DNA of 64,000 nucleotides from Saprospiraceae bacterium (GCA_965227445.1 OZ245751.1:4178499-4242498), one strand, 5' to 3'. Numbered from the stretch's first letter, positions 20,430 to 29,553 are shown. Notes: a model not told the origin generated them from the letters alone. Numbers and translations: made by a program.

Positions 20430-21518
20430 TTACTTGAGCTGAGCCGGAGGAGACAGGAAAAAGCCCAGCTTGAGATAGGGAGCATTACCCGGACGCAATT
20501 CATAGGATGTCTGTCCTGATTGGGTCGCTTCCAGGCGGGTATTAAAATTCCACTGATAACCGACCTTGGCGTTCAGCCAGACCCAGGGTACCACTCGCCG
20601 TTCCAGGCTTATGCCCGTTTGAATTTCTGAGTGGTTGAAGTGGTAAATAGAGGTACCCTCTTCCAGCGTCCGGCCGGGCATATCGACGGAGTAGGAATTG
20701 CTGTTAAACTCGTATCCAAAGAGCAGGATGGTGCTCTTATCCACATTGTATCGTCCCTTAATTTGAGCGGGAAATACCGCTTCGATCCCCCATTTATCGC
20801 TGAAGTTGCGATTGTACATAATGAATGGCAGAGCCAGCGTACGCCGGAAGTTGTGGCTGAAGGCAGCACCTACCCCCCATTCAAAGTCATCACTCTTCTT
20901 GACACCGTACAGAAAGGTAGCATTATAGGCTGCATAGCGCTGATCAAAATCCACCCAATTGGTGTAATCACCGTTCAGGCGCATTTTCAGGCGACCGCCT
21001 ACGTATGTCCGGTCATCAATGGGCTTGAGGAAATATACTCCAAATCCGTTGCTGTTCAGCTTTCGGGTATCAATGGTACTGAAATACGAACTTTCCTTTG
21101 ATAACAGCTGGCTGTTGCCAAAAGCATAGATTTCGGGCTGATAGTCATATCCCAGCAGTAGTTTAAACCCTGGTTTATTGAGCAGCGGAATCTTCAACTT
21201 GACATTTAGCCGCTGGAAATAGTCCAGTTCCTGTGGAAGAACACCCCCCAACTCACTACTACCATTGATGGGACCGCCGGCAAAATAGTTGTAGGAGACC
21301 TCAAAACCACGACCTCTCGACTTATTATCGATACCCGGATCACAAAGGGTCGGACCACTGCCATTTCGCGGCAAATCGGCTACCGCCTGTGCCCGCGCTT
21401 TGCAGGGACACAAGGTGCACCAGGTACACCAGGTAACAAAACCGATCCATATCCATCGAACTATTCGCACAGTGGTTTTCTCTTTTGTTATTACTATCAG
21501 AGGACGCAAGTCAAGCAA
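20430..21518 (-). CDS. hypothetical outer-membrane beta-barrel protein
   Basis: Alternating amphipathic strands; aromatic-rich C-terminus ...YLKLGFFLSPPAQLK. True start uncertain, and the N-terminal 40 aa of the track ORF look non-native. Confidence 0.35.
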   Translation of the reverse strand: MLDLRPLIVITKEKTTVRIVRWIWIGFVTWCTWCTLCPCKARAQAVADLPRNGSGPTLCDPGIDNKSRGRGFEVSYNYFAGGPINGSSELGGVLPQELDYFQRLNVKLKIPLLNKPGFKLLLGYDYQPEIYAFGNSQLLSKESSYFSTIDTRKLNSNGFGVYFLKPIDDRTYVGGRLKMRLNGDYTNWVDFDQRYAAYNATFLYGVKKSDDFEWGVGAAFSHNFRRTLALPFIMYNRNFSDKWGIEAVFPAQIKGRYNVDKSTILLFGYEFNSNSYSVDMPGRTLEEGTSIYHFNHSEIQTGISLERRVVPWVWLNAKVGYQWNFNTRLEATQSGQTSYELRPGNAPYLKLGFFLSPPAQLK

Positions 21519-21664: not shown

Positions 21665-22393
21665 TCACGTAATCAGACGCTCCAGAAAGAAACCGACATA
21701 ATAAGCGACTCCAGCTGCCAGCACGCCAAGTATAAGCGTTTCAATAATTCCCTTCCAGGTAGACGTTTCCGTCACGTAGGTTTTTAGCCATCCGACGCCC
21801 ACAAAAGCGACCCCCGTACCTATGCACGTCCAGGTAAACAGGTCTCCAGGAAAGGGGCTTAGAAAATCATAGACGTAGAGTAACAGCGGGATCAACCCCA
21901 TCAGAATAAATGCCAGGTAGGTTACCAGGCCAATGGTCCAGGGTGAGCGATTGGCTTCCATCATTTCTAATTCCTCTTTCATCATAGTGTCCACCCACCG
22001 TTCGGGTTGGGCAGTGATTACATCCACCACCTGCTCCAGCAGTTTTCCCGAAAACCCCTTTTGGCGGTAAATAGTCCGTACCTCTTCCCGCCCCTCCTGC
22101 GGCCGGTTACGGACCTCTTCGTACTCCTGCTTTTGGTGTTTCAAGAAATTGTCCTGTTCCGATTTGGCCGACAGGTAGGCCCCCACCGACATGGAAAAAC
22201 CGTCGGCTAATAAATTTGCAAAACCCAGGATCAGAATGATCGACGTATCCAGTCCGGCACCTACGGCCCCCGCCACCACTGCAAAGGTAGTAATGCTGCC
22301 ATCTATTCCTCCGTATACGAATTCCCCCAGGTATTTCTGGTGCTGGTGCAGGAATCCGCCGGCACGTTCAGCTGTTCTTTCCATAATGACCAC
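21665..22393 (-). CDS. VIT1/CCC1-family iron/manganese transporter
   Basis: [24 protein letters not shown] motif of the VIT family; C-terminal TM bundle. Confidence 0.75.
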
Positions 22394-22453: not shown

Positions 22454-23629
22454 CTAGTGGCCATGCCCCCCTTCCCCGCTATCCATGGTTCCTTGTACGT
22501 AATAGGCGCCTTTTACTACCAGATTGGTATTTGCGGGATCCTCAAGCCCCCGAATTTCGAGGTACCCGTTGCGTGATCGCCCAACGGACACTTCTTTTTG
22601 GCGAAAGCCGCCATCTTCCTGAATAAATACCGAAGCCGTATTTTCCGAACGAATCACCGCCGACTCAGGTACACTCCAAACCCGGGTTGTATCGAGGTAT
22701 ATCCGCGCCTGAACGTAGGTGCCCGGCGGCAGGGCATCCGCCTCGTTGTGGAAGTGCCCGTGGACTACGGCCGTTTTATCTTCGAGGTCAATAGATCGCC
22801 CAATCCGGTATACATAGGCGGTGGAGGGGCGGTCCGTTCCAGGCACGTACACCTCCATCGGCTGGTCGCGCTTCAATTTGCGCAAATCCTTGGCGTACAC
22901 ATTGAGTTCGATGTGCTGGTGTTCTACATCGAGCACCTCGTACAGTAATTGACTATCATCGACCAGCTTACCCGGGTTCACATTGATCTGTTCGATGTAC
23001 CCACTTACGGGTGCATAGACCCCAGTGCTGGTTTGAAATTCACCGGCCAGCACCTGAGCTGTATCTATCCCGACCATGCTTAGTTCGGCCGCCAAACCGC
23101 GAAAGGTGGCCATTTGCCGGTCATAAATAGCCTCGGCCTCCTCCAGGGAGCGTTGGGAGGCAGCATCTGCTCCGGCCAGGGTTTCCTTGCGTTCAACATC
23201 TTTGCGCAGAGTCGATAGCTGAGAGGCTGCTTCCGCAAAAAGTCGTTGTTTATGGATTAACTCGGGGTGCCGTAGGGTAGTAAGTAAGGTTCCCTTGCGC
23301 ACAAAATCCCCGATTAATTGAGGCACTTTACCCACAAACCCTTTGGTGGTAGCGTACACCAAATGGCGGTTATTAGGCGGCAGTTCAATGTAGCCGGTAC
23401 ACTCGACAAAATCGCTGATTGGTCGCTGCTCCGGCGAGCCCACGCTGATGTTGGCCAGGGCCATCTGAGTACTATCCAACCGGATCAGGTCCGTTGAAAT
23501 ATTCACTTCTGAGGATTGTTCAGCGGTCTCCATATCGCCCGGGACCGGATCAGAACCGCCAGATTGATTAGCGCAGCCAGCACTTACAAAAAGGATTAAA
23601 CTTCCTATCAGGACATGAATGAGTTTCAT
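22454..23629 (-). CDS. efflux RND periplasmic adaptor (CzcB/CusB-like membrane fusion protein)
   Basis: Lipobox LFVSAGC; coiled-coil hairpin region and beta-barrel domains; 12 nt downstream of the RND pump gene. Confidence 0.75.
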   Translation of the reverse strand: MKLIHVLIGSLILFVSAGCANQSGGSDPVPGDMETAEQSSEVNISTDLIRLDSTQMALANISVGSPEQRPISDFVECTGYIELPPNNRHLVYATTKGFVGKVPQLIGDFVRKGTLLTTLRHPELIHKQRLFAEAASQLSTLRKDVERKETLAGADAASQRSLEEAEAIYDRQMATFRGLAAELSMVGIDTAQVLAGEFQTSTGVYAPVSGYIEQINVNPGKLVDDSQLLYEVLDVEHQHIELNVYAKDLRKLKRDQPMEVYVPGTDRPSTAYVYRIGRSIDLEDKTAVVHGHFHNEADALPPGTYVQARIYLDTTRVWSVPESAVIRSENTASVFIQEDGGFRQKEVSVGRSRNGYLEIRGLEDPANTNLVVKGAYYVQGTMDSGEGGHGH

Positions 23630-23640
23630 GATATTATAAA

Positions 23641-26600
23641 TTATCGGATGAAGAAATTAAGATCGATCACGGCCTGATTATATGCGTGGATCAGGTGGAG
23701 GTAATCGAGTTCGTTGCGCAGGGCTGCTTCCAGGGCCTGCACATACTGGAAATAATCGATGTCCCCGCTTTCCAATTGGCGGGTGGCCAGGTCGCGTAAG
23801 ATGCCGGCCTCCTCCCGGAGTTCAGCACCCTGGGTATCCAGTGCGTCTCTGCGGATCCGGACCGTCCGGGATTGCCCTTCCACCGAACGCAGAAGCTCTA
23901 CCCGCACCCGCTCCAACTGGTGTTGGGCTGCGATCTGTTCCAATTGCTGCTCCTGAATACGAGCTTCCCCCGCCTTGCGAAATAAGGGAATCTGTACCCC
24001 GGTAATGACTCCCATCAGGCTATATCGTGGACGTAGGCTTTGGTTGAAGTATCCTACCTGAAAGCTGGGGCCGAGTTCTTTCTCCCGCACCCGGGTCCGC
24101 AATTGTTCCATTACAACCTGTTCCTCCTGGGGCGCAAAAAGCAATTCCTGAGCAATGAGTTCCGCCGGTTGGGGAAGTGCTTCGTATGTCTCTGTCGTAG
24201 TCCAGGATTGACCGTTAAGCCAGGCTCTTTGCCGGAGTTCATTTAAGGCGGATTCAACCGCTACTCTGGCTTCCGCCAAATCCTGGTCCAGGCGAGTGCG
24301 CTGGTTACGCACCAGGGTCTGGTCCAGGCGGTTAATAGCACCGGTGCGAAGTTGCAGGTTGGTCTTGGCGACAACGGAATCCAGGGTAACACGCAGGTCG
24401 AGCAACCGGCGCAGGCGGGCCTCTTCGTACACCCAACGGTACCAGGCTTTAGTGACCTCGTACACCAGTTGGTATTCCAGTTGTTCCTGTTGGCTGAGGG
24501 CCACGTCAATACCCTGTCGAGCCATTTCCTTACGCTGTTTATCCGCCCCGATCTGCCCAAGGCTCTGTGTGATCGAGAGGTTGTAATCGATCAGGGTTCC
24601 GTCGGTTTGTCCGATCTGTAAACTGGTGCTCAAGGGAGGAATTTGTCGTGCCTGGTTCACCCCGAGTTCGGCCTGACGTACCCGAACGGCTGCCGTGCGC
24701 AGTATAGGGTGCCGCAGCGTAGCACTGTCTATGGCTGCTCCGAGTGTTAATGGTTCCGGGCTTCCGGCTTGCGCCAAAAGTTTGTGCCCGGGTAGTCCCG
24801 TAACCAGAACGATAGCCACTACCCCTGCCGCAACCTTGCGAATCGATTGGCGATTGACCAGGTAGTAGAAGATGGGCAGAACCACCAGAGTGAGCAGGGT
24901 TGCCGTGATTAAGCCCCCGATGACCACCGTTGCCAGTGGTTTCTGGACCTCAGCTCCATTCGAGGTTGATAGTGCCATAGGCAAAAAGCCAAGGGCCGCT
25001 ACGGTAGCAGTCATTAAGACGGGGCGCAAGCGGGTAAGTGCACCTTCCATGATGATTGCCCGGAGGTCACCCCGGTCATCGGTATACCACATTTCATTGA
25101 AGCGACTGATCAGGACAATGCCATTCAGCACCGCCACCCCAAATAATGCAATGAACCCGACACCGGCCGAAATACTAAAGGGCATGCCTCGAATCCAGAG
25201 GGCTACGACCCCGCCAATGGCGGCCAGAGGAACTGCAGAAAAAATCATGAGTGCGTATTTGAGTTTCCCGAAAGTGAAGTAGAGAAGTATAAAAATGAGT
25301 CCTAAAGCAGCCGGAACCGCCAGGGAAAGCCGACGCTGAGCGCGCTGCAAATTCTCAAACTCCCCTCCAAAAGTAATGGCATAACCAGGGGGGAGATCCA
25401 GGTTTTGCTCCAGAGTATTTTGCAGTTCATCGACCAGGGATGCTACATCCCGGCCCCGCACGTTTACTCCTATATTGATACGTCGGCGAGTATCCTCGCG
25501 GCTAATCTGCAGCGGACCTTCCTCGAAGCGCACCTCTGCCACTTCGCTCAGTGGAATGGGTTTGCCATTAGGTCGCCTGATGAACAACCGGTCCAGATTC
25601 ACATCCTCGCGGTATTGCTCTTGCAGGCGAACGACCAGATCGAAGGTCCGTTCATTCTCGTAAACCGTACCGGCGGTTTCTCCGGCGTAGGCCGAACGAA
25701 TGATGGTATTCAGGTCTTCGATATGCAATCCGTATTCGGCAATGCGAGCCCGGTCGTATCTGATCATTAACTGGGGTAAACCCTGGGTCTGATCCACCCG
25801 CACATCAGCGGCGCCCGGCACCCGCGCGATCAGGGGCTCCGCCTCATCGGCCAACGCCTTCAATACCTCGTTGTCCTCCCCAAATATTTTAATGGCAATG
25901 TCCGACTTGGCCCCGGTCATTAATTCGTTGAAACGAAGCTGGATGGGTTGGGTGAATTCGAAGGATGCGCCGACAACTACTGACAGGGCTTCCTTCATTT
26001 TTTCCACCAACTCTTCCCGGTCAGAGGCACTTTCCCACTCCGAACGGGGTTTCAGGATGATCATGATGTCCCCATCCTCCACCGCCATGGGATCGGTGGG
26101 TACCTCCGCCGTTCCGATCTTGGACACAACGTGGGTTATCTCCGGAAAGCGATCCAGCAGGATGCGCTCCGCCTTTGTACTGGTCCGGATGCTCTCGTCC
26201 AGGCTGGACCCGGGCTGGATGGTCATCTGCATGGCGAGGTCGCCCTCCTCCAGCGTCGGGATGAACTCCGCCCCCAGTGTCCGGAACAGCAGAACTGCCC
26301 CGACCAGTACGGCCAGGGCCAGCCCGAGGACGACGTACGGCAAACGCAAAGCACCTCGCAAAATAGGCCTGTAACCGTTCTGCAAACGCACTAACACCCG
26401 GTCAGACCAGGAATTGTGTCCCTGGATCTTTTTTTGCAACAGCAAGGAAGAAAGCATGGGGACGTACGTCAGCGAGAGGATCAATGCCCCCAGGATGGCA
26501 AAACTGAACGTCAGGGCCATGGGCCGGAACATCTTCCCCTCAATCCCAGTGAGTGTCATCACCGGAATAAAAACCACCAGAATGATAAAAACCCCGAAAA

Positions 26601-27945
26601 CTGCGGATCGGAATAGGCGGGACGCCGAATCGATGATGATATTATCCATTTTCGATTGGGATAATCGCTGTCCCGCATACTGGGAGACCAGAGCAAAGAG
26701 AACACCCTCGACAATAATTACCGCCCCGTCGACCACAATACCGAAATCGATGGCTCCTAATGACATTAGGTTGGCTGACACCCCGAACTGACGCATCATG
26801 ATCAGCGCAAAAAGCAGGGCCAATGGAATCACCGAAGCCACGATCAGGCCCGCACGCCAATTTCCCAATAGTAAAATCAAGACCACAATGACAATGAGGC
26901 CACCCTCCATCAGGTTTTTTTCAACGGTGTGGATGGCATCGGCCACCAAATCGGAGCGATCCAGGTAAGGTGTTAAGCGGACGCCCTCGGGCAGGGATTT
27001 ACGCACTTGTTCTACCCGCTCGTGCACATTGTTGATTGCTTCCGATGAGTTGGCGCCGCGCAGCATCAGGGTGATACCGCCCACTGCTTCCCCTTTCCCA
27101 TCCATTGTCATGGCCCCGTAGCGTTTGGGGCTACCAAAACCGACGGTTCCCACATCGCGAATCAGCACCGGTGAGCCCGAACGCTGAGCCACTACGATCT
27201 GCTCAATATCCTCGAGGGACTGGACGACCCCTTCCGTCCTGATGTAGTATGCATTGGTTTGCTTGGTGATATAACTGCCGCCGCTGTTCTGGTTGTTCAT
27301 AGCCAGTGCTTCGAATACTTCCGGTATGGCAATGTCATAGGATTGCAGCAGCAGAGGATCCAGAGCTACCTCGTATTGCTTCAGATAACCACCAAAGCTG
27401 CTCACTTCGATGATCCCCGGAATACCCGCCAATTGTCTTTTGACGATCCAGTCCTGTATGGTCCGCAGTCGCATGGGATCGAACTCGTGTTCGTACCCTG
27501 GTTCGACCTCCAGGACATACTGGTAAATTTCCCCCAGGCCGGTGGTGATAGGCATGAGTTCGGGTCGGCCTAATTCGGGGGGGATCTGTTGTTCGGCTAT
27601 CCCGATCTGCTCTTTTACGAATTGGCGGGCATCGAGAACCGGCATGCCCTCCTCAAATACGATGGTGACCACCGAAAGGCCAAAGCGGGAGATGGAACGT
27701 ATTTCAGTCACCCTCGGGATGTTGGCCATCGCCACCTCCACGGGGTAAGTAATAAATTGCTCCACCTCCTGAGGGGCCAGGGAGGTGGATACGGTTACAA
27801 CCTGCACCTGGTTGTTGGTGATATCGGGAACTGCATCAATAGGCAGACGTTGTGCGGAGTATACGCCGGCTATTATCAACCCTACGACTAGTAGTCCGAT
27901 GATCAGTTTGTTGCGTACGGAAAAACGTATGATCGCTTCAATCAT
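23641..27945 (-). CDS. CzcA/CusA-family heavy-metal RND pump fused in frame to a CzcC/TolC-like outer-membrane factor
   Basis: First about 1040 aa are a canonical CzcA (12 TM, MIEAIIRFSVRNKLII start). The frame continues with no stop through a signal-peptide-like RKVAAGVVAIVLVTGLPGHKLLAQA and about 390 aa of coiled-coil TolC/CzcC-like sequence. Confidence 0.8.
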   Translation of the reverse strand: MIEAIIRFSVRNKLIIGLLVVGLIIAGVYSAQRLPIDAVPDITNNQVQVVTVSTSLAPQEVEQFITYPVEVAMANIPRVTEIRSISRFGLSVVTIVFEEGMPVLDARQFVKEQIGIAEQQIPPELGRPELMPITTGLGEIYQYVLEVEPGYEHEFDPMRLRTIQDWIVKRQLAGIPGIIEVSSFGGYLKQYEVALDPLLLQSYDIAIPEVFEALAMNNQNSGGSYITKQTNAYYIRTEGVVQSLEDIEQIVVAQRSGSPVLIRDVGTVGFGSPKRYGAMTMDGKGEAVGGITLMLRGANSSEAINNVHERVEQVRKSLPEGVRLTPYLDRSDLVADAIHTVEKNLMEGGLIVIVVLILLLGNWRAGLIVASVIPLALLFALIMMRQFGVSANLMSLGAIDFGIVVDGAVIIVEGVLFALVSQYAGQRLSQSKMDNIIIDSASRLFRSAVFGVFIILVVFIPVMTLTGIEGKMFRPMALTFSFAILGALILSLTYVPMLSSLLLQKKIQGHNSWSDRVLVRLQNGYRPILRGALRLPYVVLGLALAVLVGAVLLFRTLGAEFIPTLEEGDLAMQMTIQPGSSLDESIRTSTKAERILLDRFPEITHVVSKIGTAEVPTDPMAVEDGDIMIILKPRSEWESASDREELVEKMKEALSVVVGASFEFTQPIQLRFNELMTGAKSDIAIKIFGEDNEVLKALADEAEPLIARVPGAADVRVDQTQGLPQLMIRYDRARIAEYGLHIEDLNTIIRSAYAGETAGTVYENERTFDLVVRLQEQYREDVNLDRLFIRRPNGKPIPLSEVAEVRFEEGPLQISREDTRRRINIGVNVRGRDVASLVDELQNTLEQNLDLPPGYAITFGGEFENLQRAQRRLSLAVPAALGLIFILLYFTFGKLKYALMIFSAVPLAAIGGVVALWIRGMPFSISAGVGFIALFGVAVLNGIVLISRFNEMWYTDDRGDLRAIIMEGALTRLRPVLMTATVAALGFLPMALSTSNGAEVQKPLATVVIGGLITATLLTLVVLPIFYYLVNRQSIRKVAAGVVAIVLVTGLPGHKLLAQAGSPEPLTLGAAIDSATLRHPILRTAAVRVRQAELGVNQARQIPPLSTSLQIGQTDGTLIDYNLSITQSLGQIGADKQRKEMARQGIDVALSQQEQLEYQLVYEVTKAWYRWVYEEARLRRLLDLRVTLDSVVAKTNLQLRTGAINRLDQTLVRNQRTRLDQDLAEARVAVESALNELRQRAWLNGQSWTTTETYEALPQPAELIAQELLFAPQEEQVVMEQLRTRVREKELGPSFQVGYFNQSLRPRYSLMGVITGVQIPLFRKAGEARIQEQQLEQIAAQHQLERVRVELLRSVEGQSRTVRIRRDALDTQGAELREEAGILRDLATRQLESGDIDYFQYVQALEAALRNELDYLHLIHAYNQAVIDLNFFIR

Positions 27946-28253: not shown

Positions 28254-28700
28254 TCAGGCAGCAATGGGTGGTTGAAATAGCTGATCAGAATGGTCAACGC
28301 CACTTCCCAGGCCCTGACCAAAAGCGAGGGATTCAGATGCGAAATAAAAGACTACATCAGGCAAGGTTTCTCCGTGGCAAGCCATTTGAATATGACTTCC
28401 CAGATGTTGCAGAGGTAAATCCTGATGATCGGATCCCGGATGAGAGTCGGGATGTTCACCGGTCTGATAGAAGTGGATACTCAAAAACTCCAGGAAATTC
28501 ATGTCTTCCCCTTTATCCGCGGCGAGCGTCTGGTGTTCCTGGAAATGATCAATTAAAAAGGGGATTCGCGCTAACTGACAAAAATCCGAGGCCGGGAAGA
28601 AGCTTCCCAACAGTAGATAAGCGGATAATGTGATGGCAGTTAATCGCATAATTAAGGATAAGAAGCTATTTGAATTTAATCCTTCGACTTTGTTAGGCAC
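28254..28700 (-). CDS. hypothetical His-rich membrane-anchored protein (strand ambiguous)
   Basis: Minus-strand ORF has an N-terminal TM helix and HFQEH/HPDSHPGSDH His-rich stretches. A 121-aa antisense ORF overlaps it, so which strand is expressed is unresolved. Confidence 0.25.
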   Translation of the reverse strand: MPNKVEGLNSNSFLSLIMRLTAITLSAYLLLGSFFPASDFCQLARIPFLIDHFQEHQTLAADKGEDMNFLEFLSIHFYQTGEHPDSHPGSDHQDLPLQHLGSHIQMACHGETLPDVVFYFASESLAFGQGLGSGVDHSDQLFQPPIAA

Positions 28701-28890
28701 CTTTTGCGGCTACTTTTCGTTACCAAAATCCTCATTTAGCGCTGCTAAACTCCGGTTTTGGTGCCTCAATTAGCCACAATATGTACACTAACAATTTTCA
28801 AAAACCAAATTCAAACAGCTTCTAAGTGTACTAAAAAATAATCAGAAATATTGCAGGCAGGATCAATTACCCTGCCTGCAATCACTTTCC

Positions 28891-29553
28891 TTAGATGGAT
28901 TTCTTGACCAGGTAGAAGTCTACCTTTTCATCGTAGGCACCCTCGATACGCTCATTCATGGCGTCCAGCGTTTTGGGTGGAGGGACGATGGCTTTTTCGC
29001 CTTCTTTCCAGTTGACCGGCATGGCAACACCATTGGCATCAGCTGTTTTCAGGGCCAGCAGAATGCGTTTGATCTCTTCCATATTACGTCCGATGTTAAG
29101 CGGATAATACAGGATGAGGCGAATGGTCTGGCTCGGATCAATGAAGAATACGGCCCGCACAGCGGCAGTAGTGGCTTCACCCGGGTGGATCATACCGTAT
29201 TTTTTGGATACGCTCATATCCAGGTCGGCAATGATTGGGAAATCCATATAGACACCTGTATTCTGGCGTACGTTGTTTACCCAGGCCAGGTGGGAGTGGA
29301 TACTGTCGATCGACAGCCCGATCAGTTTGGTATCGTGCTTGTCGAAAAACGCTTTCTCCTGTGCAAAGGCTGACAATTCAGTAGTGCATACGGGCGTGAA
29401 GTCCGCAGGGTGCGAAAACATGACGACCCATTTATCTTTACCGTACTCCGAAAAAGTCAGATTTCCATGTGTGGTTGGAGCTGTGAAATCCGGAGCCTTT
29501 TCGCCGATCCGGGGCATGGGTTGAATGGCTGGTTGTTGGTTTTGACCTTCCAT
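28891..29553 (-). CDS. 1-Cys peroxiredoxin (Prx6-like, AhpC/TSA family)
   Basis: DFTPVCTTEL peroxidatic-cysteine motif; 220 aa. Confidence 0.85.
   Translation of the reverse strand: MEGQNQQPAIQPMPRIGEKAPDFTAPTTHGNLTFSEYGKDKWVVMFSHPADFTPVCTTELSAFAQEKAFFDKHDTKLIGLSIDSIHSHLAWVNNVRQNTGVYMDFPIIADLDMSVSKKYGMIHPGEATTAAVRAVFFIDPSQTIRLILYYPLNIGRNMEEIKRILLALKTADANGVAMPVNWKEGEKAIVPPPKTLDAMNERIEGAYDEKVDFYLVKKSI

Follow-up and report, generated by a model that had tools for sequence, protein, structure and literature searches.

A CzcA-type efflux pump and its outer-membrane channel encoded as one chain in Bacteroidota, with a predicted signal peptidase site at the joint

We describe here a gene from a 64,000-nucleotide stretch of a Saprospiraceae bacterium genome (GCA_965227445.1, OZ245751.1:4178499-4242498; this whole stretch is referred to as the window) that encodes an inner-membrane metal efflux pump and an outer-membrane channel as one continuous protein. 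The minus strand of window positions 23641-27945 is a single open reading frame (ORF) of 1434 amino acids (aa), without internal stop, that ends in TAA at 23641-23643 and joins a resistance-nodulation-division (RND) pump of the heavy-metal efflux (HME) type to an outer-membrane factor (OMF). The pump-channel fusion is genuine and anciently conserved, and the gene in the window is an ordinary member of a widespread family, neither a mutation nor an error. Judged by its sequence, the joint between the two halves carries all the features of a cleavable Sec signal peptide of the type covered by the Bacteroidota Q-rule. The product is thus probably a polyprotein of a tripartite heavy-metal efflux system, predicted to be split by signal peptidase I into pump and channel.

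Two halves in one reading frame

A first-pass annotation of the window, made from the sequence alone, had reported a single in-frame ORF of 1434 aa uniting CzcA with an OMF, and the uninterrupted translation together with the Pfam and TIGR00914 domain matches bears this out. The two sequence strings that it quoted, ...LPIFYYLVNRQSIRK and VAAGVVAIVLVTGLPGHKLLAQA, are both located in the protein, at aa 1023-1037 and aa 1038-1060, respectively, and its junction range of 24.75-24.90 kb contains the joint as mapped here (nt 24772-24855), which reads ...LPIFYYLV-NRQSIRK-VAAGVVAIVLVTGL-PGHKLLA-QAGSPEPLTLGAAIDSA....

The N-terminal part, aa 1-1030 (24856-27945, minus strand), is an HME-type RND permease domain. 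Pfam ACR_tran matches aa 5-1030 (E 1.5e-282, profile positions 1-1020 of 1021), and TIGR00914, the CusA/CzcA model, matches aa 1-1034 over nearly its full length (profile positions 1-1039 of 1051; 1171.9 bits against a cut-off of 701.45). A hydropathy scan finds 12 hydrophobic segments before aa 1030, in agreement with the complete CzcA of 12 transmembrane (TM) helices recognized in the first pass. The proton-relay motif of TM4, DFGIVVDGAVIIVEG, lies at aa 400 and has G instead of N at its last position; DFG-x3-DGA-x3-VEN is said, in work by Nies from 2003, to be the TM4 motif of divalent-cation HME pumps.

The C-terminal part (23644-24771, minus strand) is an OMF domain of the CzcC/CusC/TolC family. 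Two stretches of it, the first beginning at aa 1071, match Pfam OEP (E 5.2e-19; 69.2 bits, cut-off 22), and an AlphaFold2 (AF2) model of the C-terminal 404 aa, computed as a monomer from a 30-sequence alignment, is confident (pLDDT 91, pTM 0.83). The model (H38-67, E75-100, H102-170, H176-211, H237-260, E264-288, H294-362, H368-403) has the canonical protomer topology, with two beta-hairpins, two 69-residue helices of ~103 Å and two half-length helix pairs, and Foldseek places it with SilC, CusC, TolC, CmeC, OprJ, OprM and MtrE (probability 1.00, TM score 0.65-0.71). The sequence profile of this half, on the other hand, reaches CusC only at E 2e-4, and none of the NCBIfam models recognizes it; the OMF clade is thus a divergent one. 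The TolC-family identity given in the first pass stands, while the length of 390 aa does not, the predicted cleavage leaving 376 aa and 42.9 kDa. There is no Cys in aa 1060-1434 and no lipobox, the joint ending in ...KLLA/QAGS (a slash marks the predicted cut), and the channel therefore lacks a lipid anchor, unlike the lipoprotein CusC.

Pump and OMF halves are both complete; their motifs are intact, the fold is confident, and purifying selection on them is evident. Together with the adaptor encoded next to them, they fall within the HME-RND, OMF and adaptor families, so that all three components of an efflux system are represented, and metal transport is predicted. As to the metal carried, the context is only indirect: the adaptor is of CzcB/CusB type, and a VIT1 gene and a His-rich ORF lie in the operon.

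Conservation of the architecture

The identical 1434-aa protein, with the same neighbouring genes, occurs on 7 contigs, which derive from several independent samples and assemblers; three Joint Genome Institute (JGI) metagenomes and a 6.8-Mb contig at 62x coverage from the European Nucleotide Archive (ENA) are among these. The best 120 homolog clusters share 56-93% identity with it, and nearly all combine a length of 1428-1436 aa with 100% query coverage. Among the named homologs are those of Saprospiraceae, Lewinellaceae and Phaeodactylibacter xiamenensis, whose only annotation is 'CusA/CzcA family heavy metal efflux RND transporter'. The OMF is missed in gene inventories because the fusions carry only the 'CusA/CzcA' name, which makes this component invisible in surveys of Bacteroidota efflux and of metal and drug resistance.

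The first-pass annotation had proposed comparing orthologs for a stop codon at the junction. Searching with the OMF half recovered 33 species-representative genome loci, and in 31 of them the frame runs open over the joint; the other two are an orphan OMF gene and a locus cut by a contig end. This survey used an 8-sequence OMF subset and the seed GYFNQS[IL]RP, which restricts it to this OMF clade, nearly all of it from Saprospiraceae and Lewinellaceae. Six loci (L010, L014, L015, L017, L025 and L037) have the fused ORF interrupted in the RND or the OMF part, never at the joint. Of the six, three lie on 'tig' long-read contigs of metagenome-assembled genomes (MAGs) and one has 1.7x coverage; the interruptions are probably indel or assembly errors, with pseudogenes occasionally possible.

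The architecture extends well beyond this clade. An exhaustive HMMER search with the OMF half alone recovers, among stand-alone OMFs of ~400 aa, full-length fusions of 1430-1446 aa whose OMF identity is 22-26%. One such distant fusion is WP_204396616.1 of Phocaeicola plebeius, whose relatives form gut-metagenome clusters of 4252, 1641, 1276 and 1147 members, so that gut Phocaeicola and Bacteroides account for thousands of copies. A Hymenobacter genome contributes a version of 1508 aa, and the fusion is thus found in three Bacteroidota classes, Saprospiria, Bacteroidia (Phocaeicola) and Cytophagia (Hymenobacter). The first-pass alternative that the two genes are genuinely fused is upheld by the 7 contigs and by an architecture that is kept down to ~22% OMF identity across these classes.

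In the Hymenobacter case (L040, 1644-6170, an uncultured Hymenobacter sp.), a low-complexity linker of ~85 aa rich in Ala, Glu, Ser and Pro separates TM12 from RGGARGGAAGLLLLLLLTFPARA/Q. This linker comes ahead of the hydrophobic segment and so lies on the side predicted to be cytoplasmic; it is still followed by RGGARGG-AAGLLLLLLLTFPARA/Q.

Several candidate variants of the architecture did not hold up. Looking for orthologs split by a stop codon yielded nothing of use. P0127, which appeared to be a stand-alone relative, is a truncated gene call of a fusion and begins with ...LVNKK at the end of TM12. P0104 (1769 aa) and P0314 (1669 aa) had been considered as triple fusions with the adaptor; they contain only duplicated ACR_tran stretches and no third domain, and their excess length is likely an artefact of assembly or gene calling. 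P0123, a stand-alone gene of 406 aa, was considered as an ancestral split operon and is instead an orphan beside a VIT1 gene, with neither an RND nor an adaptor gene. It lies at L001 5368-6588 (the same place as L013) in the Saprospiraceae MAG GCA_028285545.1, is 38% identical to the OMF half in the window, and has its own N-terminal signal peptide (...IMLIA/QGS), VIT1 downstream and a pair of extracytoplasmic function (ECF) sigma factor and FecR genes upstream. It is probably a deletion derivative of a fused operon.

Features of the joint

The joint can be divided in the manner of a signal peptide. Its n-region, NRQSIRK (aa 1031-1037; 24835-24855, minus strand, as are all positions in this section), is predicted to form a basic cytoplasmic turn after TM12. 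It is followed by an h-region, VAAGVVAIVLVTGL (aa 1038-1051; 24793-24834), which hydropathy marks as a 13th hydrophobic segment and which AF2 predicts as helical at segment residues 9-20, and by a c-region, PGHKLLA (aa 1052-1058; 24772-24792), at whose end lies the predicted signal peptidase I site A1058/Q1059. Gln1059 (24769-24771) would be the +1 residue.

These features are conserved in an alignment of 117 full-length sequences, made up of 116 homologs and the window protein. TM12 is almost invariant (0.40 bits per column); the hydrophobic stretch of the joint varies freely in sequence (2.80 bits) but is 85% apolar. Ahead of this core, K/R number 3.4 and D/E 0.3 on average in the family (3.4-3.8 K/R over the n-region as delimited). 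The -1 position is small in 115 of the 117 sequences (A in 99, S in 9, G in 6 and T in 1), and the +1 position is Gln in 113 (0.27 bits). Q1059 is among only 19 nearly invariant columns of the 404-aa alignment, and it lies with the c-region in a stretch that AF2 predicts to be disordered (pLDDT <50), outside the OMF fold. A basic n-region, an apolar h-region, a short c-region ending in a small residue and a +1 Gln are thus all present, and what sets the joint apart from an ordinary signal peptide is its position: it lies inside the chain, preceded by 1030 residues with 12 TM helices, rather than at the N-terminus of the precursor.

According to the Q-rule of Bacteroidetes, signal peptidase I exposes an N-terminal Gln, which is cyclized to pyroglutamate. 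Q-values average 71% and exceed 48% in 332 of 334 species (PMC5837995). In the window itself, all five recognizable non-lipoprotein signal peptides end in A/Q. In 72 stand-alone OMF relatives, the signal peptide is N-terminal and has a core hydropathy of 2.92 and 17.9 residues from the last K/R to the site; the corresponding values of the joints, 3.15 and 18.8, agree with these. A stand-alone protein, the 'OM Efflux protein' Tanf_07615 of T. forsythia, is cut at ...FCAMA/QEVLTLDQ and carries pyroglutamate, as mass spectrometry has shown (PMC5837995), and its site equals joints such as ...A/QQPVLTLDQA... in motif and spacing. As a negative control, the 'SAQR' after TM1 of the pump (aa 29-32, 27850-27860) resembles a Q-rule site. 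It was rejected as a second site, the 'AQ' being unconserved, with Q in 40% of the family and mostly L before it.

Proposed processing and assembly

In the mechanism that we propose, the ribosome would make one chain of 159 kDa, of which the 12-TM CzcA-type pump would insert first into the inner membrane, leaving its C-terminus in the cytoplasm. NRQSIRK, VAAGVVAIVLVTGL and PGHKLLA/Q would then act as an internal Sec signal sequence, with VAAGVVAIVLVTGL inserting as a 13th helix from cytoplasm to periplasm and starting translocation of the 376-aa OMF through the Sec translocon. Signal peptidase I would cut at A1058/Q1059 or, less likely, at AQA1060/G, and the new N-terminal Gln of the channel would probably be cyclized to pyroglutamate. 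The predicted N-terminal stretch of the released channel is QAGSPEPLTLGAAIDSATLR (aa 1059-1078, pyroglutamate first), and the alternative predicted N-terminal peptide is GSPEPLTLGAAIDSATLR. The products would be a 116-kDa pump of 13 helices, which retains the signal segment, and a 42.9-kDa channel protomer; the latter, a CzcC/CusC-like protein of 43 kDa, would trimerize and insert into the outer membrane. Pump and channel would be bridged by the adaptor, whose gene lies 11 nt downstream. Fusion would, in addition, enforce synthesis of pump and channel protomers at 1:1 and deliver the channel beside its pump. The cleavage, the pyroglutamate and this stoichiometric rationale are inferred; what the sequences themselves establish is a real, conserved fusion of two complete halves, a joint built like a cleavable signal peptide in every feature, and a short tether.

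A number of points weigh against processing of this kind. We found no experimental or proteomic data on any fused protein, and the supplements of the Q-rule paper (PMC5837995) contain no peptide from one. The window protein has a second plausible site, AQA1060/G1061, two residues downstream of the first. The cleavage-site picker used in the comparison with stand-alone proteins favours Q and thus inflates its Q figures of 83% and 89%, a bias from which the alignment-column counts of the -1 and +1 residues are free. The stoichiometric rationale is speculative. Finally, bacterial signal peptidase I does not usually cut behind a domain of 12 TM helices; precedents include the Bradyrhizobium cytochrome b-c1 precursor FbcH and engineered leader-peptidase substrates.

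Alternative explanations

If the chain were never cleaved, the outer-membrane channel would be held covalently to the inner-membrane pump through the 13th helix, as a single-chain machine spanning the envelope. The continuous and conserved reading frame fits such a design, and covalent coupling would likewise give a 1:1 stoichiometry. The geometry, however, speaks against it. Between the hydrophobic core and the OMF fold there are only ~13 residues here (family median 9, range 6-32), which when extended would span at most ~35-45 Å. In the AF2 model, the chain joins the OMF fold where a 30-residue helix pair has its lower end; the beta-barrel lies ~45 Å above this entry point, and the tip of the ~103-Å helices ~58 Å below it. 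The periplasmic headpiece of RND pumps is ~70 Å high, and cryo-electron microscopy maps of AcrAB-TolC (e.g. 5ng5) have a gap between pump and channel. Headpiece, gap and model geometry together place the entry point at least 125 Å from the inner membrane, and an uncleaved chain would thus be unable to form a canonical channel above its pump. A design adapted to permanent attachment should show a long periplasmic linker, and none is seen, the sole long linker, that of Hymenobacter, lying before the hydrophobic segment on the cytoplasmic side. Permanent attachment also leaves unexplained the fixed pair of a small residue and Gln in a disordered stretch. The tethering of channel to pump that the first pass had envisaged as a consequence of fusion is therefore unlikely, given a linker of 9-13 residues and a conserved site of signal peptidase type. 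We give a similarly low probability to a set of less conventional outcomes, in which the chain is uncleaved or partly cleaved, so that some pumps have a covalent TolC-like domain linking both membranes or form a periplasmic duct of a geometry other than that of AcrAB-TolC, or in which cleavage does take place and the retained 13th helix and delivery in cis are functionally required, each pump protomer seeding its own channel. The last of these, if true, would amount to a dedicated, Bacteroidota-specific assembly pathway for tripartite pumps.

The OMF could instead be made separately, from an internal start and with its own signal peptide, the read-through product being minor or non-functional. 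The GTG to which the first pass had pointed (VAIVLV) does exist, as codon V1043 within the hydrophobic core, and a few members have Met in the n-region (...RKMKNAMKSM..., P0009, L011), plausibly as relics of an ancestral czcC start. An in-frame ATG, GTG or TTG before the hydrophobic core is, however, not conserved, and L014, L016, L018, L020, L026 and L036 have no start able to give both an n-region and an h-region. A product begun at V1043, M-AIVLVTGL..., would lack a basic n-region, and its core would be ~8 residues long. Across 29 loci (25 non-redundant), the true starts of fusion and adaptor lie in A-rich leaders (A 0.44-0.51, A+T 0.71-0.76), whereas the joint (A 0.27, A+T 0.53) has the composition of the gene-body background (A 0.24, A+T 0.49). 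Selection would, moreover, not hold more than 1400 codons open across three classes for the sake of a by-product. We thus regard separate production of a CzcC from the internal GTG as very unlikely. That the stop between czcA and czcC was lost through a sequencing or assembly error or a recent mutation, the other possibility raised in the first pass, can be dismissed with near certainty. One base change could in principle join adjacent czcA and czcC genes, and some MAG loci do have frame interruptions elsewhere in the gene; such an origin is refuted, on the other hand, by the identical protein on 7 contigs, the 62x contig included, by the same architecture and length both in more than 115 clusters at 56-93% identity and in distant lineages with thousands of members, and by two halves that have kept intact motifs, a confident fold and purifying selection.

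Relation to known systems

The polyprotein reading has its closest relatives, by components, in CzcCBA of Cupriavidus metallidurans and in CusCBA and SilCBA of E. coli and Salmonella, which are HME-RND tripartite systems with the same three components as the system in the window. CusC and SilC are the closest solved relatives of its OMF, its adaptor is CzcB/CusB-like, and its permease has the DFG..DGA..VE motif. In the known systems, however, the components are encoded by separate genes in the order C-B-A, whereas in the window A and C form one ORF with an internal signal, followed by B; CusC and SilC are lipoproteins, whereas the OMF here has neither Cys nor lipobox; and the operon in the window adds a His-rich 131-aa ORF and a VIT1 gene. 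Stand-alone Bacteroidota OMFs such as Tanf_07615 have, like the fusion joints, a small residue and Gln followed by L-T-L-D-x-A...NHP-x-L. Their signal peptide lies at the true N-terminus of a ~400-aa protein instead of after a whole permease, and its statistics are indistinguishable from those of the joints.

The order of events proposed here, in which a polytopic domain is followed by an internal signal and an exported domain that is freed by signal peptidase, is that of the FbcH precursor. Bunyavirus glycoprotein precursors follow it as well (PMC7926653). These are unrelated proteins, and the cleavage in the window is predicted and would give products destined for different membranes. Another fusion within the RND superfamily of partners that are separate elsewhere is SecDF of Thermus thermophilus (PMC8277102). 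It consists of two inner-membrane halves that stay joined, with no export signal, cleavage or outer-membrane partner. The architecture studied here is common in public databases, and we found no paper that describes it: a search of open-access full text returned no description of an RND-OMF fusion, although such absence is not proof, and no mention of one occurs in the searched part of a review on tripartite pumps that appeared in Chem Rev in 2021.

By the textbook account, the three proteins of a tripartite efflux pump are made separately and then assembled, and how the number and location of channels are matched to those of the pump is still debated. Bacteroidota, including the abundant gut genera Phocaeicola and Bacteroides, encode pump and channel as one chain with an apparent cut site. 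If the cleavage is true, this would be a natural membrane polyprotein of bacteria that supplies two different membranes with one product each, with the protomer ratio fixed at 1:1 and an RND pump of 13 TM helices left behind.

The surrounding operon

The gene order A(C) then B, as stated in the first pass, is confirmed: the adaptor gene (22454-23629, minus strand) starts 11 nt after the stop of the fusion, and fusion is followed by adaptor in every lineage examined, including L007, L040, L041, L042 and L043. The adaptor, a CzcB/CusB-like membrane fusion protein of 391 aa, matches Pfam HlyD_D23 and TIGR01730 (123.1 bits against a cut-off of 94.9). Its lipobox, LFVSAG/C, makes it a probable lipoprotein, and its C-terminus, GEGGHGH, forms a short tail rich in His.

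On the 3' side of the adaptor lies a gene of the VIT1 family (21665-22393, minus strand; Pfam VIT1, E 6.8e-64), resembling Fe/Mn transporters, and farther in this direction a DUF6268 gene (20430-21518, minus strand). VIT1 also adjoins the adaptor in the distant fused lineage L042 and the orphan OMF in L001, which hints at a role of the operon in handling Fe, Mn or related divalent metals.

Upstream, on the 5' side of the fusion, an ORF of 131 aa (28254-28649, minus strand) is called on all independent contigs. It has an N-terminal hydrophobic segment and the His-rich stretches HFQEHQ, EHPDSHPGSDHQD and HLGSH. It has no Pfam or NCBIfam match and is 42% identical over 85 aa (E 4e-23) to an ORF of the same size and position in Phaeodactylibacter xiamenensis; L042 has an ORF of 124 aa in the corresponding upstream position, so that this distant clade keeps both the small upstream ORF and the downstream VIT1. 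The 131-aa ORF is probably the first gene of the operon and may serve the pump as a partner in metal binding or regulation.

A different neighbour is seen in a gut metagenome scaffold (L041, 10288-12091; P0208), where a His_kinase/LytTR response-regulator pair lies directly 3' of the fusion-adaptor pair and suggests a dedicated two-component regulator; the 90% cluster of P0208 includes the Phocaeicola plebeius protein WP_204396616.1. No such pair adjoins the fusion operon in the window.

Scans for sigma-70 promoters and terminators gave no more matches than shuffled sequence, and for Bacteroidota promoters they carry no information. Just 3' of a peroxiredoxin gene (28891-29553) lies a strong 14-bp hairpin (28850-28882, minus strand) that has a T-rich tail and is probably where the efflux operon is bounded on its upstream side.

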